A stretch of 32,406 nt of DNA from Candidatus Kaiserbacteria bacterium RIFOXYD1_FULL_42_15 (lineage in GTDB: Bacteria; Patescibacteriota; Minisyncoccia; Phycocordibacterales; UBA918): positions 1 through 32,406 of the forward strand of contig MFMT01000040.1 in the NCBI GenBank assembly GCA_001783565.1, given 5' to 3'. The translations under genes were made by a program, and so were the position numbers. The notes beneath the pieces are model-generated. The model did no database searches. It was not told where the DNA came from and saw nothing but the letters and a program-made list of their open reading frames with translations. Positions 719 to 26,178 of the stretch are shown in pieces. Within the stretch, counting starts at the first letter, position 1. Each line of letters begins with the position of its first letter.

Positions 719-873
719 TATCACTTCCACGAAGCTTTTGAGATATATTTAAAGCTTTGCTTTAGAATATATCCAAAAGGTATACAGCTTCTGTAAGAAG
801 TGGAAGTGATCTAATATCACTTCCACGAAGCTTTTGAGATAGTTTTGACTGGAAGGAAAAAATATCCAAAAGG
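704..873. repeat. two tandem ~96-bp units duplicating the rplK 3' end and its stop-codon hairpin
   Basis: The 42-bp block at 704-745 is identical to 800-841. ATATCCAAAAGG occurs at 769-780 and 862-873. Each unit begins with an 11-bp-stem hairpin, GTGGAAGTGAT/ATCACTTCCAC. Confidence 0.9.
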
Positions 874-2925: not shown

Positions 2926-2953
2926 TCATTGCCCAGCATCTTTAGAGGGAAAT

Positions 2954-3207
2954 GTCTTTGCGAACGCCTTTAGCTACGAGCGGAGCGCGACAGGTAATAA
3001 TTCATGTAAGCCACCACCACTCTGGATCGCCACGCTCCGCTCGCGATGACTTTTCGCTTTTGTTTTTACGAGTCAGTGCGTAGTAGCAACCCACGCTGTT
3101 TCTTCATACTGGATTGCCACGTCACTCGCTTGCCAGCTCCCTCCTCACAAAGACGCAAACGGTCCCCACCACCGTCTTTGCGAGCCACGCGAAGCAATCC
3201 ACGTCGT
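2954..3207. repeat. REP/BIME-like nested palindromic repeat cluster A
   Basis: Units share the ends CGTCTTTGCGA(G/A) and GCAATCCA. They are: degenerate long unit 2954-2994 (+), 3021-3050 (-, variant), 3110-3155 (-), 3173-3203 (+). The cluster sits between the convergent 3' ends of dcd and thyX. Confidence 0.85.
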
Positions 3208-3263
3208 CACTAAACACATTCAGATATTCACTCAAGTTGAAAAATAAAAGTAGCATTTCATAT

Positions 3264-3291
3264 TTTATATCGCGATTAATCGCGATATAAA
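3264..3291. repeat. 28-bp perfect palindrome TTTATATCGCGATTAATCGCGATATAAA in an AT-rich spacer
   Basis: Checked base by base; the symmetry centre lies between 3277 and 3278. Confidence 0.9.
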
Positions 3292-3373
3292 TGTTTATTA
3301 ATTTGATGACAGTATTTCTAAATCCCATTTAGGGGCATTATATATTTTTATTTGGTTATTAAATTTTAGAAAT

Positions 3374-3399
3374 CGCCGCGAACCATAGGGTTCGCGGCG
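3374..3399 (-). terminator. intrinsic terminator downstream of thyX
   Basis: CGCCGCGAACC / GGTTCGCGGCG form an 11-bp GC-rich stem 8 nt past the thyX stop, with a T-rich tract on the minus strand. Confidence 0.7.
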
Positions 3400-3406
3400 C
3401 TTATTT

Positions 3407-4783
3407 TCAGTCCGGTCGCTTGACTATGTCGTGTTCACCACGCTTCACATTGAAGCGGCCGGGGTCGGGATCGAGATGAAACCGAAGACCGATGTCACCA
3501 TAGGTGTCGGCTAAGATACCAGCCATTTCCACCGCCCTCGAAGAGAGCGTTGGGTGTACCATGCTGGTGGCCCTAAGTTCAAGCAGATAGACCAGGGCGG
3601 GCAAATCCCCAGCGAGATAGTTACTGATGTTGTATCCCATCGGCAGATAGTATTGTCGCATGGCTGTATCATCAGTAAGACTGGCGGTGACATCAGCTTG
3701 CTCAGCGATGAGTTTCTCCGCCTCAACTCGTAGTGTCGGTGTCAGTTGCGACAGATACCACTCGTTGAAACCGAGCTCGGCTGTCAAAAGAGGCATCCGT
3801 TGCGTTACGGCTCGATGACGCTGGATGTCACGAAAAGAACCGAAGTCCAGTGTGAAAGCAAAAGCAGCTTCGCCATACACCCCAAGCCATTTTGGTAGTT
3901 CGGTTTTTGGTGGTCGGTTGGCAAGTAAATCGCGATAGGGAACAAGTGCCACCTTGTCTACACCGTCACGCACCAAGGCCATGTCGGGCGAGTCTGGGTT
4001 GTGGTAATAGTATCTCGCTATTGTTTCTTCTATGTAATAACGCTCTGTCGCTTCGTACCGTTTCTTTTCTTTATCGAAAGAATTCGGATAGGTGGCGATA
4101 AGGGCGTCTTCCAGGACGTTGGCAATGTCCTGCACTTCGGGCAAAGGATGGTGACGGAGTTGTTGAACCCGGTCAGCAAATTGCCGTAAGGTACCAGACC
4201 AAGCCAGATTAGTTGAGGCACCAGCTGGCAAAAAGCCACGGCAGATATCAAATGCTCGCGCCGCAATTGCCTTGTTGTAGGTCGCTTCTTTTTCTCCTTC
4301 TTGGATTGGATAGCGTGCCGGCAGGGCAGCTTTCATTTCTGTTACCGCTTTGAGATAGAAGGTACGCCAATGCTCGAGCACAGTTGTACCTTCAGTTGAA
4401 TCGAGTGGATTCAAAAACAGCTGGGCGGCAAAGTCGATGTAGCGAGTCGAGGCCTCTTGTCCATTGTAAAGCTTCGAGTCCTGAATCGCTTTGGCGGCCA
4501 GCATTGAGACCCCTTCGATAAAGACAACGGCAGTGCCACAATCGCCGATAGACTTGTGTCCGTAGCCGACATAGTGTGTCGACATGAATTTGTCGGCACC
4601 CTTTTCGGCCAAGACTTTGAGATGTTCGTCCACACCGCCGGTCGAGCGCGAGTGAAGGGCTTGGAGCATGGCTAATGCTTCAGCCGATAGAACAGCGCCT
4701 GGGTCGATGATAACGATTTTACCGCCCCCCTTAAGGGTACTGCGGTGGTGATTCAGGGTCTTGATGGTTTGCATGGTCTTCAT
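3407..4783 (-). CDS. thyX: flavin-dependent thymidylate synthase ThyX, long tandem-domain form (458 aa)
   Basis: Two ThyX-like halves. The N-half has GHKSIGD..QEASTRY..ARAFDICRGFLPAGASTN. The C-half has FRDIQRHRAVTQR..LELRAT..HP. Confidence 0.72.
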   Translation of the reverse strand: MKTMQTIKTLNHHRSTLKGGGKIVIIDPGAVLSAEALAMLQALHSRSTGGVDEHLKVLAEKGADKFMSTHYVGYGHKSIGDCGTAVVFIEGVSMLAAKAIQDSKLYNGQEASTRYIDFAAQLFLNPLDSTEGTTVLEHWRTFYLKAVTEMKAALPARYPIQEGEKEATYNKAIAARAFDICRGFLPAGASTNLAWSGTLRQFADRVQQLRHHPLPEVQDIANVLEDALIATYPNSFDKEKKRYEATERYYIEETIARYYYHNPDSPDMALVRDGVDKVALVPYRDLLANRPPKTELPKWLGVYGEAAFAFTLDFGSFRDIQRHRAVTQRMPLLTAELGFNEWYLSQLTPTLRVEAEKLIAEQADVTASLTDDTAMRQYYLPMGYNISNYLAGDLPALVYLLELRATSMVHPTLSSRAVEMAGILADTYGDIGLRFHLDPDPGRFNVKRGEHDIVKRPD

Positions 4784-5672: not shown

Positions 5673-6095
5673 ATGCAACTCCCCGTTAAAAAACTTCACC
5701 CAGTCGCTACAATACCTCAGTATGCTCACCATAATGATGCAGGGATGGATTTGTTTTCTGTTTCCGAAATCACTATTCAACCCCAAGAACGAGTTTCTGT
5801 TCCTACTGGTATTGCGATGCAGATACCCGATGGATATGTTGGACTAATTTGGGATAAGAGCGGTATCTCACAGAAGTTTGGTTTAAAAACTCTTGGGGGC
5901 GTAGTAGATGCCGGTTACCGCGGTGAAATTTTTGTTGGGCTATATAATACTGGAGATAATCCTCATACTTTTGAAGCTGGTCAAAAACTAGCCCAAATTA
6001 TCATTCAGAAGATTGAACAGCCCGAAGTCATTGAGGTGTTAGAATTAGGTGATTCAATTCGAGGTGAAGGGGCCTTTGGAAGTACTGGTAAATAA
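5673..6095 (+). CDS. dut: dUTP diphosphatase
   Basis: AGMDL, GLIWDKSG, GGVVDAGYRGEI and RGEGAFGSTGK are the trimeric dUTPase motifs. Confidence 0.93.
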   Translation: MQLPVKKLHPVATIPQYAHHNDAGMDLFSVSEITIQPQERVSVPTGIAMQIPDGYVGLIWDKSGISQKFGLKTLGGVVDAGYRGEIFVGLYNTGDNPHTFEAGQKLAQIIIQKIEQPEVIEVLELGDSIRGEGAFGSTGK

Positions 6096-6155
6096 ATTAC
6101 ACATGATCTAGCGTAATAAACAACTTAGTTAATTATAAAAATAAACTTTTTCATT

Positions 6156-7424
6156 ATGCAAAAATACGAATTTATCAAAGCGCAGGATTCAGAGATATAC
6201 GCAACTTTAGTTGGTGAGGAAGCACGAGAGGCGCGAGGGATTGAATTGATTCCGAGTGAAAATTACGTCAGTAGGGCGGTACTTGAAGCGAATGGTTCAG
6301 TTTTTACCAACAAATATTCTGAAGGGTATCCGGGCAGACGTTACTATGGCGGTCAGGAGTTTACCGATATTGTAGAGACAATTGCTATAGAACGCGCCAA
6401 AAAACTTTTCAAGGCGAAGTTTGCCAACGTTCAACCACTCGGTGGAGCGGCAGCGAATGTGGCTATGTACTTTGCCTTGATGGAACCAGGCGACACTGTG
6501 CTTGGTATGGACCTCTCTCATGGTGGCCACCTTACTCATGGTCATCCAACAACTGCTATTAACAAAGTCTTCAACTTTGTGCGGTACAAGATGAAGGATG
6601 TTGATACAGGCGAAATTGATTTTGACGAATTACGCAAGGTTGCGCTCGAACACAAACCAAAGATTATCTTGGCTGGTTTCTCGGCCTACAGTCGCGAGCT
6701 TGATTATGCAAAGTTTGTTGAGATCGCGCACGAGGTTGGTGCGTACACGGTGGCTGACATGGCCCATATCGCTGGTTTGATTGCTGGTGGAGTGGTGAAG
6801 AATCCGTTTGACTTTGAATTTGATGTTATCACCACCACCACTCATAAGACCTTGCGCGGTCCACGTGGTGGAATGATTTTGGTACGTGAGAGTGAAGAAA
6901 TTGCTAAGAAAATAAATAAAGCCGTCTTTCCTGGAATGCAGGGTGGACCACACATGCATCAGATTGCCGCCAAGGCAGTTGCTTTTGGTGAAGCACTAAC
7001 TCCAGCTTTCAAAGTGTATGCAGCGCAGATTCTTAAAAACGCTAAAGCGATGGAGGCAGTTTTCAAAGCCGAGGGAATTAGATTGCTCTGTGGCGGTACC
7101 GACAATCACCTGCTATTAGCAGATGTCTTTGGTTCTCTTGGTGTGACGGGGGCAGAAGCCGAACGGGTTCTGGATGAAGTTGGCATTACTCTTAATAAAA
7201 ATATGATTGCCGACGAATCGCGTACCGCCATGGACCCATCTGGTATTCGTTTTGGTACGCCGGCCATGACGACACGTGGTATGAAGGAAGCGGAAGCCAC
7301 CAAACTAGCGGAACTAATGATTACCACCATGCGCGCCAAGGATGACAACAACAAAAAACAAGAATTACAGAAAGAAGTCCAAGCTCTCTGTGAAAGATTT
7401 CCAGTACCTGAGGTGATGGTATAA
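6156..7424 (+). CDS. glyA: serine hydroxymethyltransferase
   Basis: LIPSENY, YPGRRYYGG, and TTTTHKTLRGPRGG, which contains the PLP lysine. Confidence 0.97.
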   Translation: MQKYEFIKAQDSEIYATLVGEEAREARGIELIPSENYVSRAVLEANGSVFTNKYSEGYPGRRYYGGQEFTDIVETIAIERAKKLFKAKFANVQPLGGAAANVAMYFALMEPGDTVLGMDLSHGGHLTHGHPTTAINKVFNFVRYKMKDVDTGEIDFDELRKVALEHKPKIILAGFSAYSRELDYAKFVEIAHEVGAYTVADMAHIAGLIAGGVVKNPFDFEFDVITTTTHKTLRGPRGGMILVRESEEIAKKINKAVFPGMQGGPHMHQIAAKAVAFGEALTPAFKVYAAQILKNAKAMEAVFKAEGIRLLCGGTDNHLLLADVFGSLGVTGAEAERVLDEVGITLNKNMIADESRTAMDPSGIRFGTPAMTTRGMKEAEATKLAELMITTMRAKDDNNKKQELQKEVQALCERFPVPEVMV

Positions 7425-10904: not shown

Positions 10905-13900
10905 ATGAACAAACAACATGGACGGGAAAATGATTCTGTCGCAGTAACGCCAGAAGTAGAAAAATCTGATGTGGCTTTGCGCGAAGAAGTTATTCAACAG
11001 TTTTGGAAAGATAACGATATTTTTAATAAAAGCTTGTCCAAACCGGCCGGCGCTGACCCTAAAGGAGACTTTGTATTTTACGACGGACCACCTTTTGCTA
11101 CTGGTACGCCACACTATGGTCATATTTTGGCCGGCACCATTAAGGACGCCATCCCGCGTTTTTGGACAATGCAGGGCTACCATGTCCCACGCAAGTGGGG
11201 CTGGGACTGCCATGGTCTGCCGTTGGAAAATCTGATTGAGAAAAAACTTGGTCTTGGTACCAAGCGTGATATTGAGGCCTTTGGAGTCAAAAACTTTAAC
11301 GAAACCGCCCGTTCGGCTGTTTTGGAATACGCGGATTACTGGGGCAAGGTAGTGCCTCGCATGGGACGTTGGGCTGATATGGAAAGTGATTACCGAACTA
11401 TGGATAGTACCTACACCGAAAGTGTTTGGTGGGTATTTAAGTCACTTCATGATAAAGGTTTGGTATTTGAGGGTTTTAAAAGCATGCACCTTTGTCCTCG
11501 TTGTGGTACAACGCTCAGTAATTTTGAAGTAAACCAAGGATACAAAGACATCAAGGACATTGCCGTGACGGTAAAGCTACCCCTTCTTGATGAACAGGGA
11601 AAGATTACTGACACAAGTTTGCTAGTATGGACAACCACTCCATGGACATTGCCGGGGAATATGGCTACCGCAGTTCACAATGACGTTGAATATACAAAAG
11701 TAAAAATACGGTCATCCGATGACCGTATTTTGGATGAGTGTGTAATTTTGGCAAAAGAACGCCTCGCTCAACTGGGTGACATACCGTACGAAGTTGTCGA
11801 AGAGTTTAAAGGGTCAGCCCTGGTTGGAAAATCATTCCAGCCGCCATTTGATTATTGGTTGAAACAAGATTTTGCTGGAAAAGAAAAGGCCTGGAAAATT
11901 TACCATGCTGATTATGTCGAAGTCGGTGCCGAGGGAACGGGTGCAGTGCATCTTGCTCCGGCCTATGGTGACGATGATATGACCTTGGCCAAAGTACACG
12001 GTGTCCCTATTGTGCATCACGTCAATCCTGATGGTCACTTTATGGACTTCGTAATAGATTTTGCTGGTCAATTGGTCAAGCCCAAGGATGATGAGGCATC
12101 GGAAGTATCACACCTTGATGCAGATATTGAAATTGTCAAAGCGCTTAACGCGAGTGGACGCCTATTCAAGAAAGAAAACATAACGCACAGCTATCCACAC
12201 TGTTGGCGGTGTGATACACCACTCCTCAATTACGCAACGACTTCGTGGTTTGTTAATGTTCCAAAAATCAAAGACGAATTGGTGACTGAGAATAACAAAG
12301 TAAACTGGGTACCAGAATATGTCGGCCGTGCTCGTTTTGGTAATTGGCTGGAAGGAGCTCGCGACTGGGCAGTTTCGCGCCAACGCTACTGGGGTGCACC
12401 ATTGCCAATTTGGAAAAACCCCACCACTGGAGAATATAAAGTCATCGGTTCGCTAGTTGACCTACAACAATATGTACCCAAGAGTGGCAACACCTACTTA
12501 CTCATGCGTCACGGTGAGACAGAGAGTAATGTTAAAGGTGTCATTAGTTCTCATCCTGACAGCCGTGATTCGCTTACACAAAAAGGGCAAGAACAAATCA
12601 AGGCATCCATCGCTGATATCGGTAAAATTGATTTAATCATTCACTCTGGTTTTGAACGCACTCGGCAGACGGCTGAACTGTTGTCGGAAAACCTCGGCGA
12701 AATAGACATAATTGCAGATCAGCGAATTGGTGAACTACAAGCGGGAGACATTCTTGAGGGTAAAACTTGGGACAAATATAACGAACAATTTCCTACTTGG
12801 AAAGACAGATATGAAATGGTTATCCCTAATACAGAAAATCGGCGCGATGTTCAGGTGCGTATGGGCAAATTCCTGTTTGAGTTAGAGCAGACATATAAGA
12901 ATAAAAGAATTTTGATTATTAGTCATGCCGGTCCACTCTTTGCCCTTGAATCAGCGGCTCGAGGTTTGAATCCCGAAGGAGCAAAAGATTATTATGATAC
13001 ATTAAAAAATATGTATTTTAATAATTCCGAAATTCGAGAATTGAACTTTACACCATTCCCTCACAACTATAACCTTGAACTCGACTATCATCGTCCGTAC
13101 ATTGATGAAATCGATTTATTTGACACTGACGGGACAAAGCTCGAGCGAGTGCCGGATGTTTTCGATTGTTGGTTTGAAAGTGGGTCAATGCCGTATGGTC
13201 AACATCATTACCCGTTTGAAAATAAAGAAGAATTTGAAAAAAATCTCTTCCCAGCTCAGTTTATTGCTGAAGGTTTGGATCAAACTCGGGGCTGGTTCTA
13301 TTCGCTGATTGTTCTTGGAACGGCGTTGTTTGGAAAATCCCCTTATCAAAATGTAATAGTAAACGGACTGGTCTTGGCGGAGGATGGTAAAAAGATGAGT
13401 AAATCACTCAAGAACTATCCAGACCCAATGGAGTTGGTTGACAGGATGGGGGCTGATGCCATGCGTCTATACTTGATGACGTCACCGGTAATCCGTGGTG
13501 AGGACTTGAACTTTTCTGAAAAAGAAGTTTTGGAATTACAACGAAAAAATATTGGACGGCTACACAATGTGTTGGCTATGTATGAGATGTTTGCTGATGG
13601 GACCGAGGCGCACAAAAATTCTACTCATATATTAGATAGATGGATTATGGCGCGGCTCAATGAATTGACCGCTTCGTCTACTGCCGGCTATAAGTCCTAT
13701 GAACTTGATAAAGCCACTCGGCCAATAATTGATTTTATTGATGATTTATCGGTTTGGTATCTACGCCGTTCACGAGATCGGTTTAAAGGTTCTGATGAAT
13801 CAGATAGAACGGCAGCCCTAGGTACTTTGCGTTATATTCTTCGTGAGTTAGCTAAAGTTATCGCTCCAGCGATGCCGTTTTATGCTGAATATTTGTGGTT

Positions 13901-19159: not shown

Positions 19160-20602
19160 ATGTCAGAGAAAAAACCCCGCTATATTACTACCACCTTGCC
19201 GTATGTAAACGCAGACCCACACATAGGGTTTGCTTACGAGTTATTGGTAGGGGACGCACTGGCTCGTTATTGGCGGCTTATGGGCCACGAAGTATTTTTC
19301 AATACCGGGACTGATGAACACGGGCAAAAAATCGCTGAAAAAGCCGACGAAGAGGGCACTCCTCGGCAAGAATACATTGACCACTATGCTAGTAAATTTG
19401 CCAGACTAAAAGAATCACTAAACCTTTCCTTCGATAATTTTATTCGTACCAGTGATTCAGGTCATCAAGTTGCTGCCCAGTCCATTTGGCAAAAATGTGA
19501 AGCCAAGGGTGATATTTATAAAAAGTCATACAAAGGACTCTATTGTGTGGGAGACGAAATGTTTTTACGCGATAGCGATTTAGTAGACGGGCGTTGCCCG
19601 AACCATCCCAACGTCGATCCGGTAGAAATAGAAGAGGAAAATTATTTTTTCAAACTTTCCAACTATCAAAAGCAACTTGAAGAATATTTATCAGACCCAA
19701 CTCGAACAATGTCAGAATCGTACCGCAAGTGGGCGCTTGATTTTGTCACTGCTGGTCTAGATGATTTGAGTATTTCCCGTAGCAAGGCACGTTTGGATTG
19801 GGGTATTCCGGTACCCGGAGATGATGAACAAGTAATGTATGTTTGGTTTGATGCCTTGACTAACTACATCTCTACACTTGGCTGGCCCACAGATACAAAA
19901 GGTGACTTCGATAAGTTTTGGGTAGGTGGAGAAACACTGCAACTTGCCGGTAAAGACCAGGTGCGTTTCCAATCAATCATTTGGCAGGCCATGCTTATGT
20001 CAGCCGATGTTAAACAAACTGACACTATTATTTATCACGGTTTCATCAATAGCGGGGGACAAAAGATGAGTAAGTCGCTCGGTAACGTCATTTCCCCGTA
20101 CGAATTGGTAGAAAAATATGGTACCGAAGCCACGCGCTATCTTCTGTTGCGACACGTCCATCCTTCTGATGACACCGATATTACCTGGGAGCGTCTCGAC
20201 GAATGGTACACCGCTAATCTAGTCAACGGCCTCGGCAACCTCGTCGCCCGCGTCATGAAGATGGCCGAAACACATCTCACTGAACCGGTAGCACGACCGG
20301 AAGCAATTGATTTCGCCGATGAATACGCGCATGCTTTTCAAAACTTTAACCCCCAACAAGCCACTGAGTATATTTGGTCACTAATTGGCATACTTGATGA
20401 ACGGATTACAACTGAAGAGCCATTTAAGTTGGTAAAAACGGATTTGGAAAAAGCTAAAGCTATTATCCGTGAACTGATGTTCGAAGTATACACTATTGCT
20501 CTCTTACTAAACCCCATCATGCACAAAACTTCTAAAATAATTAAAGAAGCCGTCCTCGCCAACAAAAAACCCAATAATCTTTTTAATCGTCTAGATGTTT
20601 AA
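19160..20602 (+). CDS. metG: methionyl-tRNA synthetase
   Basis: YITTTLPYVNADPHIGF (HIGH-type) and KMSKSLGN. I prefer ATG 19160 over the track's TTG 19139. Confidence 0.95.
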   Translation: MSEKKPRYITTTLPYVNADPHIGFAYELLVGDALARYWRLMGHEVFFNTGTDEHGQKIAEKADEEGTPRQEYIDHYASKFARLKESLNLSFDNFIRTSDSGHQVAAQSIWQKCEAKGDIYKKSYKGLYCVGDEMFLRDSDLVDGRCPNHPNVDPVEIEEENYFFKLSNYQKQLEEYLSDPTRTMSESYRKWALDFVTAGLDDLSISRSKARLDWGIPVPGDDEQVMYVWFDALTNYISTLGWPTDTKGDFDKFWVGGETLQLAGKDQVRFQSIIWQAMLMSADVKQTDTIIYHGFINSGGQKMSKSLGNVISPYELVEKYGTEATRYLLLRHVHPSDDTDITWERLDEWYTANLVNGLGNLVARVMKMAETHLTEPVARPEAIDFADEYAHAFQNFNPQQATEYIWSLIGILDERITTEEPFKLVKTDLEKAKAIIRELMFEVYTIALLLNPIMHKTSKIIKEAVLANKKPNNLFNRLDV

Positions 20603-21209
20603 TATGTCAAAACCGCAAATCATTCATATCCACGGTGGTGATTCGTTTGAAACTGATAAACAGTTTTATGAATTTCTCAAGGAACGCGAATATGACCCGT
20701 ATCTACCAGAAGTGCAAAAATGGAAAAACTGGATTAAAGAGTCGGTGGTCGATACATATGATTATATTGCACCCCAAATGCCAAATGCCCTTAATGCCGA
20801 CTACAATGCCTGGGTAATTTGGTTTGAGAAACTTTTCCCCTATCTGCGTGACAATCTAACGTTGATTGGATATTCCCTGGGTGGCGGTTTTTTACTTCGT
20901 TATTTATCAGAAAATAAGTTACCAGTTACGGTATCTAATGTACATCTAGTGGCTCCGGTGGTTGATGAAAAGGATTGTGAAGGAGTAGGAGATTTCAAGA
21001 TAAATTTAAACACCTGGTCTGGCTTTAAGACCGAACCCGTATCACTCCATATTTGGCAGTCAGTAGATGATCCGCTCGTGCCGACACATCACAGTGAGCG
21101 ATTTATAGAGAAATATCCTAAAGCAATCCTACATCGCTTCACTGACCGCGGTCACTTCTTCCAACCCGAATTCCCAGAACTCTTAGAAGAATTACAAAAC
21201 CCTAAATAA
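20595..21209 (+). CDS. alpha/beta serine hydrolase of the YdeN/RBBP9-like family
   Basis: IIHIHGG, the nucleophile elbow GYSLGGG, SVDDPLVP and DRGHFF. Overlaps the metG end by 8 nt. An alternative ATG lies at 20604. Confidence 0.8.
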   Translation: MFNMSKPQIIHIHGGDSFETDKQFYEFLKEREYDPYLPEVQKWKNWIKESVVDTYDYIAPQMPNALNADYNAWVIWFEKLFPYLRDNLTLIGYSLGGGFLLRYLSENKLPVTVSNVHLVAPVVDEKDCEGVGDFKINLNTWSGFKTEPVSLHIWQSVDDPLVPTHHSERFIEKYPKAILHRFTDRGHFFQPEFPELLEELQNPK

Positions 21210-21282: not shown

Positions 21283-21312
21283 AAAAACCTTTCGGTTAAC
21301 CGAAAGGTTTTT
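21283..21312. promoter_or_regulatory. palindrome copy 1 (core AACCTTTCGGTTAACCGAAAGGTT at 21286-21309), also a plausible bidirectional terminator
   Basis: 30-bp perfect palindrome, A5-CCTTTCGGTTAACCGAAAGG-T5(+1). Lies 74 nt after the hydrolase stop. Confidence 0.85.
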
Positions 21313-21427
21313 TCAAAACTATTACGTAGCATTTATCTCTTTAAACAAGAGAACAACCCCTAGGATTATTTTCTTGTTCATCTGGTTAGATGCTAGATGA
21401 CTGTAACCAAAAGACAATAGGGCGTCT

Positions 21428-21883
21428 TCAAACCTTTCGGTTAACCGAAAGGTTTTTGGATCTCTTTTCGCGGTCTTTTTGGTATGCTTCAGAAGCCTGC
21501 GTTTGCCCGTAATGGGGAAGTACCCCGCCCAAATGCAGAATTGAGTCAATTGTTTCAATCAGTTCAATATACCGCGCCTTTCGCTTTGCAATTGCTTCTA
21601 GAAGCAAATCATACCGACCTTCCTGGATACTCAACTTATAGTTTTTAGCAGTTGATGTACTTATCTTGAGAGCTGATGCCACCAAATAGAGTGATTGACC
21701 GTGAGTTAACATAATTATGGCAGCCAAACGCTTAGCCAACATAATCTTTTCTTCGGCTCCTAAAAAACTAGAAAGAAACAGTTCGGATTTCTTCGCGCCC
21801 AGTTGCCCAATCGTTCCGTTTAGTTGACCAAAAAGTGCATCCAATTCGGTTTGCTCTAATATCTCTTTTGATACATTAACCAT
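21428..21883 (-). CDS. TrpR/YerC-like helix-turn-helix DNA-binding protein (151 aa)
   Basis: EEKIMLAKRLAAIIMLTHGQSLYLVASALKISTSTAKNY resembles the Trp-repressor/YerC HTH core. The last 8 codons and the stop lie inside palindrome copy 2. Confidence 0.7.
   Translation of the reverse strand: MVNVSKEILEQTELDALFGQLNGTIGQLGAKKSELFLSSFLGAEEKIMLAKRLAAIIMLTHGQSLYLVASALKISTSTAKNYKLSIQEGRYDLLLEAIAKRKARYIELIETIDSILHLGGVLPHYGQTQASEAYQKDREKRSKNLSVNRKV
21430..21455. promoter_or_regulatory. palindrome copy 2 (core 21431-21454)
   Basis: 26-bp perfect palindrome overlapping the 3' end of the HTH gene. Confidence 0.85.
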
Positions 21884-21894
21884 TACTACTATGG

Positions 21895-21928
21895 TAACAA
21901 ACCTTTCGGTTAACCGAAAGGTTTGTTA
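21895..21928. promoter_or_regulatory. palindrome copy 3 (core 21900-21923), candidate operator of the HTH gene
   Basis: 34-bp perfect palindrome, TAACAAACCTTTCGGTTAACCGAAAGGTTTGTTA, 12 nt upstream of the HTH start codon. Confidence 0.85.
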
Positions 21929-21972
21929 ACAGCGGTTATGGGTTTGATTTGGCTGTTTAATATAAAAGAATA

Positions 21973-21996
21973 GCCGGCGCGTGGGGACGCGCCGGC
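21973..21996 (-). terminator. intrinsic terminator of the 39-aa ORF
   Basis: GCCGGCGCG / CGCGCCGGC form a 9-bp GC stem 6 nt past the stop. TATTCTTTT follows on the minus strand. Confidence 0.6.
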
Positions 21997-22001
21997 CGTT
22001 T

Positions 22002-22121
22002 TCAGAACATGAGCTGGACAATCCTGTCCAGAATGGCGCCGGCCAAAAGGGCTAGTACCAACGTGCTCCGCCGTTCCAAGAATGAAACGCGCACTGGTAC
22101 AGTTAAATCAAAATCATGCAT
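22002..22121 (-). CDS. small hydrophobic protein (39 aa), below the ORF-track cutoff
   Basis: AAGGAG lies 8 nt before the ATG. The peptide is MHDFDLTVPVRVSFLERRSTLVLALLAGAILDRIVQLMF. The minus strand has TATAAT (22154-22159) and TTGACT (22180-22185), though the spacer is long. It has its own terminator. Confidence 0.45.
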   Translation of the reverse strand: MHDFDLTVPVRVSFLERRSTLVLALLAGAILDRIVQLMF

Positions 22122-22185
22122 GCAAGGATCTCCTTTCAGTCATCCCCCTGGCAATTATAGTGTCCTTAAATAAAATTTAAGTCAA

Positions 22186-22215
22186 CAAAACCTTTCGGTT
22201 AACCGAAAGGTTTTG
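22186..22215. promoter_or_regulatory. palindrome copy 4 (core 22189-22212) in the divergent small-ORF/tatD control region
   Basis: 30-bp perfect palindrome, CAAAACCTTTCGGTTAACCGAAAGGTTTTG, 33 nt upstream of the tatD ATG and abutting the small-ORF -35. Confidence 0.85.
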
Positions 22216-22248
22216 GGGTAATAATTACCAGTGTGTTAATATTCATCC

Positions 22249-23073
22249 ATGAGTTTTAAATACATCGATACCCACGCGCATCTCAATTTGGCTCAATTCT
22301 CTGAGGATTCGGGGGTTATTATAAAACGTTGCCTTGAGGAAGAAGTGCGTATAATTAATATCGGCACTAATAAAGTCACTAGTCAGAGAGCTGTTTCTTT
22401 GGCAATAGAAAACGAAACACTTTTTGCTATGGTGGGTGTGCACCCCATAAATACGATTTCTGTTGACCCCGACGATATTGAAGCATTACCACCGGAAGAC
22501 ACTTTTGATTATGACTTTTATCGCACTTTAGCCACGAATGAAAAGGTGGTTGGTATTGGGGAATGTGGTTTTGATTATTTTCACAATAGCGATAGTACTT
22601 ACAAAGAACAACGCGAAGTTTTTCTAGCCCAAATTGCTTTAGCGAACGAATTGCAAAAACCGCTAATGCTTCATCTACGTAATAGTAAGGATGGACAGGG
22701 GAGGAATGCTTATGATGATGCCTTAGATATTCTGAAAGTAGAAGCTAAAGTTAGAGGTAATGCGCATTTTTATGCTGGCACTTATGAGCAAGCTCAACTT
22801 TTTTTTGAGCTTGGCTACACCGTTTCTTTTACAGGTGTGATTACTTTTGCTAAACCGTACGAAGAAATAATTCGTCAAGCTCCACTCGATATGATTCATG
22901 GTGAGACAGATTGCCCGTATGTCGCACCCATCCCTTATCGAGGTCAACGCTGTGAACCGTGGATGGTAAAAGAAGTCTATAAAAAGATCGCCGAGATTAA
23001 GGGTCTTGATGAAGAAATGGTGCGTGAGCAATTACTAAAAAACGCCCAAAAATTATATAAAATAATTATTTAA
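22249..23073 (+). CDS. tatD: TatD-family metal-dependent hydrolase/DNase
   Basis: IDTHAHLN, GECGFDY, MLHLR and ETDCPY motifs. Confidence 0.92.
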   Translation: MSFKYIDTHAHLNLAQFSEDSGVIIKRCLEEEVRIINIGTNKVTSQRAVSLAIENETLFAMVGVHPINTISVDPDDIEALPPEDTFDYDFYRTLATNEKVVGIGECGFDYFHNSDSTYKEQREVFLAQIALANELQKPLMLHLRNSKDGQGRNAYDDALDILKVEAKVRGNAHFYAGTYEQAQLFFELGYTVSFTGVITFAKPYEEIIRQAPLDMIHGETDCPYVAPIPYRGQRCEPWMVKEVYKKIAEIKGLDEEMVREQLLKNAQKLYKIII

Positions 23074-25182: not shown

Positions 25183-25269
25183 TCATCTGCTTCGTCAGAC
25201 TGCGGTAATTTTAGACTCACCGTACCGACGTACGGCTCGTCTAAAATTCCTTGTCTTCCTCGCATCTAA
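25183..25269 (+). repeat. 87-bp exact repeat, copy 1 (after ssb)
   Basis: Identical base for base to 25587-25673. Contains the hairpin AATTTTAGAC..CCGTAC-CGAC-GTACGG..GTCTAAAATT (25207-25248). Confidence 0.95.
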
Positions 25270-25586: not shown

Positions 25587-25673
25587 TCATCTGCTTCGTC
25601 AGACTGCGGTAATTTTAGACTCACCGTACCGACGTACGGCTCGTCTAAAATTCCTTGTCTTCCTCGCATCTAA
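25587..25673 (+). repeat. 87-bp exact repeat, copy 2 (after rpsR)
   Basis: Identical to 25183-25269, at an offset of 404 bp. Confidence 0.95.
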
Positions 25674-26143: not shown

Positions 26144-26178
26144 AAACAATGACGGTCATCGGATGACCGTCATTGTTT
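26144..26178 (-). terminator. bidirectional intrinsic terminator downstream of efp
   Basis: AAACAATGACGGTCATC / GATGACCGTCATTGTTT form a 17-bp stem with T runs on both strands. Confidence 0.75.

Follow-up and report, generated by a model that had tools for sequence, protein, structure and literature searches.

Perfect palindromes around a TrpR/HisR-like regulator gene of Patescibacteria as its most likely DNA-binding sites

Results and Discussion

Organization of the locus

The window (the whole 32,406-nt stretch of DNA analyzed in this study) contains a regulator gene that lies between a convergent Ser-hydrolase gene and a divergent tatD gene, with a short 39-aa peptide gene inserted on the tatD side (Table 1). 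An exact search of the window found the 24-mer AACCTTTCGGTTAACCGAAAGGTT four times with no mismatch, all within 930 bp around the regulator gene, as the earlier note had reported; no fifth copy was detected in the 32-kb window at a tolerance of up to 3 mismatches, and the chance expectation from 100 shuffles was 0 matches. Each copy extends to a longer perfect palindrome (30, 26, 34 and 30 bp for copies 1 to 4), which agrees with the previously given range of 26-34 bp. Neighboring copies are spaced by 145, 469 and 289 bp, and these spacings are unchanged in six other contigs (L001-L006) from the same or near-identical strains. The half-sites of the window copies are CCTTTC/GAAAGG at positions +/-5-10 around an 8-bp center.

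The placement of the copies relative to the genes was also largely as first described. Copy 1 follows the hydrolase gene, starting 77 nt past its stop codon (21209); copy 2 supplies the codons for the C-terminal NLSVNRKV of the regulator, with the stop codon immediately after; and the tatD ATG (22249) follows the end of the extended copy 4 at a distance of 33 nt. Copy 3 does lie upstream of the regulator ATG, spanning roughly -14 to -47 of its promoter, and the distance of 12 nt given in the earlier note is corrected here to 16 nt from the 24-mer or 11 nt from the 34-bp palindrome. Neither copy 3 nor copy 4 is at a gene 3' end. The window has further intergenic palindromes with A/T flanks, and tRNA and Rfam scans of both the window and the locus were negative.

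Table 1. Features of the regulator locus and their positions in the window.
Feature	Position	Strand	Description
Ser-hydrolase gene	20595-21209	+	alpha/beta fold; convergent with regulator gene
Copy 1	21283-21312		30-bp palindrome with A5/T6 flanks (24-mer at 21286-21309); between convergent hydrolase and regulator genes
Spacer, copy 1 to copy 2	21310-21430		121 nt; possible 19-aa hydrophobic ORF at 21322-21381 (-)
Regulator gene	21428-21883	-	151-aa TrpR/HisR-like HTH protein, from ORF, family profile and fold
Copy 2	21430-21455		26-bp palindrome (24-mer at 21431-21454); encodes final 8 codons of regulator gene
Extended -10, TGtTACCAT	21891-21899	-	7 nt 5' of regulator ATG
Copy 3	21895-21928		34-bp palindrome (24-mer at 21900-21923); candidate autoregulatory operator, center 28 nt 5' of regulator ATG
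Terminator of 39-aa gene	21972-21997		GC-rich
39-aa gene	22002-22121	-	hydrophobic-tailed peptide; on the 265-nt GC-rich insert that separates copies 3 and 4
Shine-Dalgarno of 39-aa gene	22130-22135		AAGGAG
-10 signal of 39-aa gene	22154-22159		TATAAT
Copy 4	22186-22215		30-bp palindrome (24-mer at 22189-22212); candidate operator in divergent control region of tatD (+) and 39-aa gene (-)
Extended -10, TGtTAATAT	22234-22242	+	6 nt 5' of tatD ATG
tatD	22249-23073	+	TatD/YchF-family metal-dependent nuclease (PF01026, E 6.5e-66); candidate target

The regulator protein and its family

Used as a single query, the 151-aa protein returned nothing from Pfam (including PF01371 at E<=0.1), NCBIfam or a phmmer search of the PDB, such that the 'TrpR/YerC-like' label of the earlier note drew no support from the single sequence and was sustained by the family and the fold. 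PF01371 was matched by 26 of 44 aligned homologs (E<=0.01; best 1.8e-9), some homologs are named 'YerC' by JGI, and the family profile matched the PDB entries 3g1c (7.5e-5), 3frw (3.2e-4) and 3kor (4.3e-4) over residues 7-99. The AF2 single-chain model of the protein (pLDDT 82.7) comprises 8 helices, and its ten best Foldseek matches in the PDB were all TrpR or TrpR-like, with probabilities of 0.91-0.99, target TM scores of 0.55-0.69 and weak E values of 0.15-0.8; the foremost of them reached probabilities of 0.96-0.99 at E values of 0.15-0.4. As modeled, the protein has the all-helical TrpR-like fold with a helix-turn-helix.

Clustered at 50% identity, the family falls into 1986 clusters with a threshold of E<=1e-3 and into 833 with E<=1e-10. 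Members of the subfamily are about 133-151 aa long and share a conserved C-terminal extension, IDSILHLGGxLPHY; the invariant residues in the homolog alignment include D113, H117, G119, G120 and H124. We considered a His-Me/HNH-like interpretation of this motif and abandoned it, as what follows PHY is short, variable and of low confidence in the model. No account of this regulator family was found in the literature. On its sequence relationships, the regulator is a member of an undescribed subfamily that is specific to the Patescibacteria (candidate phyla radiation, CPR) and spread across them, with HisR/YerC as the closest characterized relatives.

Paired palindromes in related loci

The comparison set comprised 65 distinct related loci, and the bracketing layout, usually with tatD adjoining, was found to recur across the Patescibacteria regulator family. 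Perfect palindromes flank the regulator gene on both sides in 48 of the 65 loci. In 40 of these, all 10 nt of the half-site agree between the upstream and the downstream palindrome, and in 45 at least 9 of the 10 do, compared with an up/down identity of only 5% for non-cognate pairs. The loci contain 26 distinct half-sites, and their perfect palindromes are 26-56 bp long with symmetric extensions that are copy-specific. Class-specific hexamers at +/-5-10 around an 8-bp center are present in the related loci as well, and TACTCCAATCGATTGGAGTA is an example of a family palindrome that is non-cognate to the window protein. The GTTAAC center, by which the earlier note had linked the window copies to TrpR, is indeed found in those copies; it is not a family feature because the center sequence differs between homologs, and only the +/-5-10 geometry with the 8-bp center is held in common.

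The half-site classes go with particular recognition helices: GAAAGG with S[TPS][SA]T[AVL], GGAGTA with S[QED][ST]T, GGAATA with SPTTTG, and GGAAGG with SP[TS]TA. Where the helix background is TTVGK, residue 76 and base +8 change in step. Half-site and recognition helix co-vary across the aligned loci, a co-variation that is confounded by phylogeny.

Copy 1 and its conserved flank correspond to the sole downstream copy of L044, a locus 85% identical to that of the window. Copy 2 and the next 121 nt have no counterpart in L044, which marks copy 2, by this comparison, as a lineage-specific extra and a recent duplicate. Gaps of 121-131 nt between adjacent duplicate palindromes occur in four loci, including the unrelated L035, L069 and L099; a comparison of the four spacers revealed no sequence similarity and no convincing common ORF.

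Promoters, tatD and the inserted 39-aa gene

In most homologous loci the regulator is preceded by TGnTAnnnT, followed after 6-8 nt by the ATG, with this box abutting the palindrome. The same extended -10/ATG promoter type is found in the window at tatD and vanY. With the extended -10 only 6-7 nt before the ATG, the regulator and tatD mRNAs are predicted to be probably leaderless. The upstream palindrome is positioned consistently, with 26-31 nt (mode 27) between its center and the ATG in 35 of 48 loci, and it abuts the extended -10 box as would be expected of an operator overlapping a promoter.

The tatD gene, which scores 208 bits against TIGR00010 (cutoff 206), is the divergently oriented neighbor of the regulator gene in 29 of 61 related loci, where one central palindrome is common to both genes. 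This upstream palindrome is placed between the extended -10 boxes of the divergent promoters and is apparently untranscribed. In the window and L044, a 265-nt insertion splits two copies; the insert is missing from L051 and most other loci. The 39-aa peptide that it encodes is identical to its L044 counterpart at 31 of 39 residues, and its 5' region has diverged. The center of copy 4 lies at about -48 relative to tatD, compared with -36 in other loci. Within the window lineage, the palindrome type at tatD is that of the regulator present, and in the MAG CAJXAG01 tatD bears the palindrome of a second, adjacent regulator paralog.

Proposed model

The regulator most likely binds DNA at the four palindromes among which it is encoded. 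The model as a whole, in which a TrpR-family dimeric HTH regulator has the 24-bp palindrome as its cognate site and exerts local autoregulation together with control of tatD, is considered probable; binding, repression, leaderless starts and the role of the downstream copy are the parts that we infer from sequence. The autoregulated TrpR-family repressor with local operators that the earlier note had proposed is favored by the bracketing of the gene, by half-sites that vary along with the recognition helix, by the promoter position, and by the confinement of extra cognate copies to within ~1 kb of the gene in 425 kb of flanking DNA.

The 24-bp palindrome would offer two CCTTTC/GAAAGG half-sites in TrpR-operator geometry. 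Protein bound to copy 3 would occlude RNA polymerase at the extended -10 and thereby repress its own gene, and copy 4 would act likewise on tatD and the inserted 39-aa gene. The ancestral state was probably a single palindrome common to the divergent tatD and regulator promoters, with the 265-nt insertion splitting this control region and one palindrome being retained per promoter. Copy 1 would represent the family-wide post-stop site, probably protein-bound as an auxiliary operator or roadblock, and through its A/T-run flanks it may also terminate both convergent genes. Points against the model are that perfect palindromes of 26-56 bp exceed what the footprint of a dimer needs, that the window protein by itself matches no PF01371 and has weak Foldseek E values, that copy 4 is centered at about -48 of tatD, that the co-variation is confounded by phylogeny, and that solo copies at gene ends (described below) are also found in genomes whose family member has another palindrome.

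TrpR is an intertwined homodimer with an amino-acid co-repressor. The comparison with TrpR covered the E. coli operators trpO, aroH and trpR. TrpR operators have half-sites at +/-5-9 around an 8-bp center (PMC9413887). The regulator resembles TrpR as a small all-helical PF01371-type HTH protein with a palindromic operator at its own promoter (its autoregulation being predicted), and the window copies share the GTTAAC center with trpO. It differs in its length of 133-151 aa with the C-terminal IDSILHLGGxLPHY, in having no trp genes nearby, in the identical second site after the regulator stop, in palindromes that are perfect over 26-56 bp, and in a center sequence that is variable among homologs.

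HisR (YerC in B. subtilis) controls histidine biosynthesis and uptake, with histidine as the co-repressor. HisR, the protein of 3g1c, is shorter than 100 aa and often autoregulated; it binds 20-bp palindromes of the motif cacTTTA-N6-TAAAgtg with a TTT/AAA core, has his genes in its regulon, and in about half of genomes one of its sites is located ahead of hisR (PMC9413887). The regulator is similar to HisR in that 3g1c, 3kor and 3frw are its best profile and fold matches and in the TTT/AAA core of its palindrome, here CCTTTC-N8-GAAAGG; it differs from HisR/YerC in length (133-151 aa), in having its own motif and a C-terminal extension, and in the downstream copy. Membership in the HisR/YerC orthologous group was rejected on length and motif and on the neighboring genes, which are tatD, metG and the Ser-hydrolase, with no his genes.

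The lac O1/O2, gal OE/OI and deo systems likewise combine a promoter operator with another site of equal or similar sequence some hundreds of bp downstream; here the second site falls exactly where the regulator gene ends. DNA looping, raised as a possibility in the earlier note, found no support, the helical-phasing signal being weak, period-dependent and confounded by related loci.

Downstream copies and gene ends

The hairpins of the four copies are stable (-15.6 to -25.3 kcal/mol, z-scores -3.8 to -7.6). That of copy 1 (-16.6 and -17.8 kcal/mol) is followed by 5-6 U on either strand, whereas copy 2 has only 3 U after the stem on the gene strand and 5 on the other; a consensus terminator scan of the window flagged none of the four. 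Copy 1 is plausibly a bidirectional intrinsic terminator between the convergent genes, in addition to its putative role as a second binding site. With an A-run, a GC-containing stem, a short loop, a T-run and convergent genes, copy 1 and the solo copies resemble known bidirectional intrinsic terminators; the family departs from these in that copies 3 and 4 occupy promoter regions, that other palindrome classes lack U-tracts, and that the sequence itself, beyond pairing, is conserved and co-varies with the protein. None of the RNA runs contains the locus; the metatranscriptomes of the same study lack it, and it was found in groundwater DNA runs only.

Solo copies of the 20-mer on further contigs of related MAGs lie at gene ends, in 13 convergent vs. 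2 divergent contexts, and have A5-6/T5-6 flanks like those of copy 1. None of these solo copies adjoined a -10 box with an ORF start in a scan that recovered the positive controls, and they were therefore left out of the promoter-operator count. The terminator alternative of the earlier note is partly right, given the solo copies at gene 3' ends and the flanks of copy 1, and fits poorly with copies 3 and 4, which are at promoters. Several MAGs carry 4-7 palindrome copies, with the exact 20-mer on up to 5-6 contigs per MAG, and in L018 and L036 the genome has solo copies, yet its known regulator-family member has another palindrome.

Alternatively, the main role could be at gene ends, with protein-bound palindromes marking or assisting bidirectional termination or insulation and the own-promoter copy titrating the protein level. 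This reading, whose roadblock logic is comparable to that of mTERF/Reb1, is favored by the convergent bias of the solo copies, by their number in several MAGs, by the fixed location of the downstream copy directly past the stop (center at +10 to +23 nt in 35 of 48 loci), by the convergent downstream neighbor in 51 of 65 loci (frequently a Ser-hydrolase), and by the GGAGTA- and GGAATA-class downstream copies, which have no T-run and are still conserved. It is nevertheless improbable: in 425 kb of flanking DNA every extra cognate copy lies within ~1 kb of the regulator gene, many of the solo copies, with their canonical A/T-run flanks, need no protein there, and we know of no case of protein-dependent termination for a TrpR-like fold.

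Repeat-like and hairpin-only alternatives

RAYTs are HUH/Y1 (IS200/IS605-like) transposase-like enzymes, and the REPs associated with them are imperfect, with tens to hundreds of them in a genome. The locus recalls REP/RAYT systems in that cognate palindromes flank the gene, paralogs differ in their palindromes, and solo copies occur at extragenic 3' ends, their dispersal being limited. The palindromes could accordingly be REP-like or recombination-site repeats with the HTH protein as a handling factor, the arrays of palindrome, segment and palindrome reflecting cassette insertion and not regulation. Duplicated palindromes bound the 265-nt insert (with the 39-aa gene) as well as the 121-nt insert; in L062, L064 and L066 both palindrome copies have the same asymmetric base, which suggests copying over independent selection; perfect palindromes reach 56 bp; and the family has weak matches to transposase or resolvase-type HTH models. 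This explanation is distinctly improbable. Pfam matches across the family were to HTH-type models only, and no catalytic domain (HUH, DDE, serine or tyrosine recombinase) was present in the Pfam/NCBIfam results for the protein or the family; with its TrpR-like fold, the protein was rejected as the HUH/Y1 transposase of a REPtron. Copies are few and mostly local, the upstream one is fixed relative to the -10 box and the ATG, and the synteny of the neighbors tatD and metG, conserved across classes of Patescibacteria, indicates vertical descent. Viral contigs contained neither a 20-mer copy nor a member of the regulator family, and a phage or mobile-element origin was rejected on this basis.

That the four copies are mere RNA/DNA hairpins (terminators or stabilizers) with no protein partner and a coincidental HTH neighbor is highly improbable: the stable stems, the A/T-run flanks of copy 1, the solo copies at gene ends and the other A/T-flanked intergenic palindromes in the window are in its favor, but copies 3 and 4 sit in a divergent promoter region with nothing to terminate, the flanking pair is identical in 40 of 48 loci despite 26 variants that track the recognition helix, entire classes of downstream copies lack a U-tract, and the terminator scan flagged 0 of 4 copies.

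Conclusions

To our knowledge almost nothing is known of transcription control in the candidate phyla radiation, whose organisms possess few regulators and have for the most part not been cultured. For the regulator family described here, the cognate site would be readable from the two flanks of each regulator gene, giving at least 26 natural protein/half-site pairs; these would constitute a data set from which the recognition code of TrpR-type HTH proteins could be worked out and orthogonal repressor/operator pairs drawn. The autoregulatory model further predicts a conserved control of tatD, and the promoters of the family provide sequence evidence for extended -10, leaderless promoters in Patescibacteria genomes.

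The findings also raise the question of sites that act as operator and terminator alike. One protein-bound palindrome could serve both as the operator of a leaderless promoter and as a gene-end terminator or insulator, or else as a recombination hot spot for cassette insertion; such dual use is speculative and has a small chance of being correct. If it were true, the protein would be more than a local repressor, and the 39-aa gene would be an example of an inserted cassette.

Palindromes surrounding the regulator gene

A scan of the window recovered the 24-mer AACCTTTCGGTTAACCGAAAGGTT in four mismatch-free copies, numbered by rising coordinate in the table, which confirms the exact palindromes that the earlier note had described around the gene for a 151-aa TrpR-like protein. 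None would be expected by chance, and no fifth copy was found in the 32.4-kb window with up to three mismatches allowed. The four copies recur at identical spacing in six further contigs, which come from the same strain or near-identical ones; the source organism's habitat is groundwater or an aquifer, and both its relatives and its gene order assign it to the Patescibacteria.

Palindrome copies, neighbouring features and other repeats of the window
Feature	Position	Strand	Context
Copy 1	start 21286		3' of alpha/beta-hydrolase gene; perfect over 30 bp
Possible 19-aa ORF	21322-21381	-	MNKKIILGVVLLFKEINAT; in spacer of copies 1 and 2
Regulator ORF, 151 aa	21428-21883	-	
Copy 2	start 21431		final eight codons of 151-aa ORF; perfect over 26 bp
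Predicted regulator promoter			TGtTACCAT, 7 nt, ATG
Copy 3	start 21900		immediately 5' of 151-aa ORF; perfect over 34 bp
Insert	21929-22185		between copies 3 and 4; carries 39-aa ORF
39-aa ORF	22002-22121	-	MHDFDLTVPVRVSFLERRSTLVLALLAGAILDRIVQLMF
Copy 4	start 22189		between 39-aa ORF and tatD; perfect over 30 bp
Predicted tatD promoter			TGtTAATAT, 6 nt, ATG
tatD	22249-23073	+	
47-nt direct repeat	704-750, 800-846		96% identical; just past ORF 296-718
GC-rich stretch	2940-3210		about 300 nt; adjoins 28-bp palindrome
28-bp perfect palindrome	3264-3291		TTTATATCGCGATTAATCGCGATATAAA; ATTAAT centre
ACGGTCATC-N-GATGACCGT	11708-11726, 26152-26170		one copy within IleRS ORF, other intergenic near efp 3' end
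87-nt perfect direct repeat	25183-25269, 25587-25673		spacing 404 nt; brackets rpsR

Several other repeats were seen in the window. The rpsR (S18) gene, a small gene downstream of ssb, is the second one bracketed by identical repeats, each copy containing an imperfect hairpin with 19-nt arms. The 28-bp palindrome is in the style of those of other family members; the adjoining GC-rich stretch gave no convincing ORF and no Rfam match, and the palindrome may be the target of a regulator whose gene lies elsewhere, or the flank of an RNA gene. Additionally, ACGGTCATC-N-GATGACCGT occurs twice where zero copies are expected, and each 47-nt repeat contains the palindrome GTGGAAGTGAT-N5-ATCACTTCCAC.

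A new subfamily of TrpR-like proteins

As a single query, the 151-aa protein matched nothing in Pfam, NCBIfam or the PDB sequences. Its homologues do match: PF01371 was detected in 26 of 44 aligned relatives, and the family profile reached the TrpR-like structures 3g1c, 3frw and 3kor over residues 7-99 (E 7.5e-5 to 4.3e-4). The AlphaFold model is all-helical (pLDDT 82.7), with TrpR or TrpR-like proteins as all ten of its best PDB structural matches, and the TrpR-like label was thereby upheld. The 3g1c structure is a HisR, the orthologue of B. subtilis YerC and a TrpR-family histidine repressor of <100 aa, which binds 20-bp palindromes often located before its own gene (PMC9413887). In contrast, members of the present family span 133-151 aa and carry an invariant C-terminal motif, IDSILHLGGxLPHY, that is absent from TrpR and HisR. 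Membership of the HisR orthologous group was rejected; the regulator represents a new subfamily with a new architecture inside the TrpR family. No catalytic domain was found by Pfam in the protein or in family members. Clustered at 50% identity, the family is large, with 1986 clusters at E<=1e-3, or 833 at the stricter E<=1e-10. MAGs labelled Nomurabacteria, Paceibacterota and Saccharibacteria contain members; a search of viral contigs yielded none, and no description of the family was found in the searchable literature.

Cognate palindromes and recognition helices

The comparison covered 80 metagenomic loci encoding relatives, together with loci from MAGs, and counted perfect palindromes with arms of at least 7 nt around 65 distinct proteins. 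Both flanks carried one in 48 of the 65; the upstream and downstream half-sites were the same over 10 nt in 40 of these 48 and matched at 9 or more of 10 positions in 45, whereas only 5% of non-cognate pairs were identical, within a set holding 26 different half-sites. In 35 of the 48 loci, 26-31 nt separate the upstream centre from the ATG (mode 27); the downstream centre is usually 10-23 nt past the stop.

Each class has a specific hexamer at +/-5-10, flanking an 8-bp centre, which is the geometry of TrpR operators (PMC9413887). The GTTAAC centre that the earlier note had likened to trpO proved to be no family trait, as centres vary (ATTAAT, ATCGAT, TTCGAA, ACCGGT, TTTAAA and ATATAT, among others). 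The hexamers pair with recognition helices: GAAAGG with S[TPS][SA]T[AVL], GGAGTA with S[QED][ST]T, GGAATA with SPTTTG and GGAAGG with SP[TS]TA, and residue 76 and base +8 vary together inside one helix background (TTVGK). This co-variation is confounded by phylogeny, yet it falls on residues equivalent to those recognition-helix residues with which TrpR contacts bases.

Predicted divergent promoters and the origin of the copies

In related loci the upstream palindrome is followed by TGnTAnnnT, 6-8 nt and the ATG, and the start of vanY in the window is preceded by the same type of arrangement. The regulator's version reads as an extended -10 promoter with a predicted leaderless mRNA; since the -10 box directly follows the palindrome, the latter would cover the spacer and -35 region and would not be transcribed with the gene. 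Of 61 loci, 43 have a divergent upstream neighbour, which is tatD in 29, with tatD's mirrored -10 box on the opposite side of the same palindrome, indicating an ancestral unit of one central palindrome amid compact divergent leaderless promoters of tatD and the regulator.

Comparison with the 85%-identical locus L044 and more distant loci indicated how the four copies arose. A GC-rich 265-nt insert, absent from most relatives, separates copies 3 and 4 in the formerly shared control region, so that one palindrome was kept per promoter. The 39-aa gene that it carries comes with a TATAAT box, an AAGGAG Shine-Dalgarno and a GC-rich terminator of its own, and the peptide (31/39 identical in L044) has a hydrophobic tail reminiscent of small membrane peptides or type I toxins. 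Copy 1 and its flank are the counterpart of L044's single downstream copy; copy 2 and the next 121 nt are confined to the window lineage, this spacer being absent in L044. The 19-aa ORF within it is hydrophobic and has no clear promoter or Shine-Dalgarno.

In MAG CAJXAG01, two regulator paralogues 2.3 kb apart (3267-3671 and 6001-6426 of locus L039) are each bracketed by their own palindrome, CCTTCCAATCGATTGGAAGG and AACCTTTCGGTTAACCGAAAGGTT, respectively. The first is divergent from tatD and the second from a 59-aa AbrB/MazE-like gene, and tatD carries the palindrome type of its adjoining paralogue. Likewise, tatD in the window bears the palindrome of the only family member there, the pattern that a functional operator would show.

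Probable terminators and less ordinary readings

A search with the 20-mer core in one genome per species gave 32 loci, almost all in Patescibacteria, and a single MAG can have it on as many as five or six contigs. Solo copies, away from a regulator gene, are all intergenic (13 convergent, 2 divergent, the remainder mostly closer to the 3' end of the gene upstream), are flanked by A5-6/T5-6 runs, carry stem extensions that differ from copy to copy, and showed no nearby -10 box or ORF start in a scan that recovered its positive controls. Copy 1 resembles them and its RNA hairpin is stable; therefore, some copies are probably bidirectional terminators, as the earlier note's alternative proposed.

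Several features lie outside a simple operator model. The perfect palindromes span 26-56 bp through symmetric, copy-specific extensions and exceed a dimer's need, and the same asymmetric base in both copies at three loci (L062, L064, L066) suggests copying between sites. Duplicated palindromes bound the inserted segments, and adjacent duplicates lie 121-131 nt apart in four unrelated loci (window copies 1-2, L035, L069, L099) whose spacers share no sequence similarity. Some genomes hold solo copies of AACCTTTCGG, yet the family member found there has a different palindrome. These features keep two readings alive: that the protein also acts at gene ends, and that the palindrome is a REP-like or recombination-site element, against which stand the protein's lack of a catalytic domain and a synteny that indicates vertical descent. 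A purely structural role as terminator hairpins is argued against because copies 3 and 4 sit where nothing needs terminating, GGAGTA and GGAATA downstream copies have no T-run and are still identical to their upstream partners, a consensus terminator scan flagged none of the four copies, and none of the extra cognate copies in 425 kb of flanking DNA is more than about 1 kb from the gene.

Composite sites resembling REP clusters occur in MAGs of Kaiserbacteria and Saccharibacteria (L019 5273, L023 7637, L032 7229, L013 3390): between convergent genes, a few nt separate AACCTTTCGG from a second palindrome, which belongs to a different family class (…CCAATCGATTGGAGTATT or GGAATAGTG). UmuD/LexA-like S24 peptidase genes (146-147 aa) adjoin AACCTTTCGG copies (L031 1250, L035 5812; two distant MAGs), and ThrRS genes lie downstream of copies in two further MAGs (L012, L036); synteny or a broader regulon could account for these neighbours.

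Conclusions

Strong comparative evidence supports the palindromes as predicted operators of the TrpR-family regulator that they bracket, in line with the autoregulated repressor with local operators first proposed and extending that proposal to the whole family. For the candidate phyla radiation, this would be a first readable system of regulator and operator, and its regulator/operator pairs would provide a natural data set for a recognition code.
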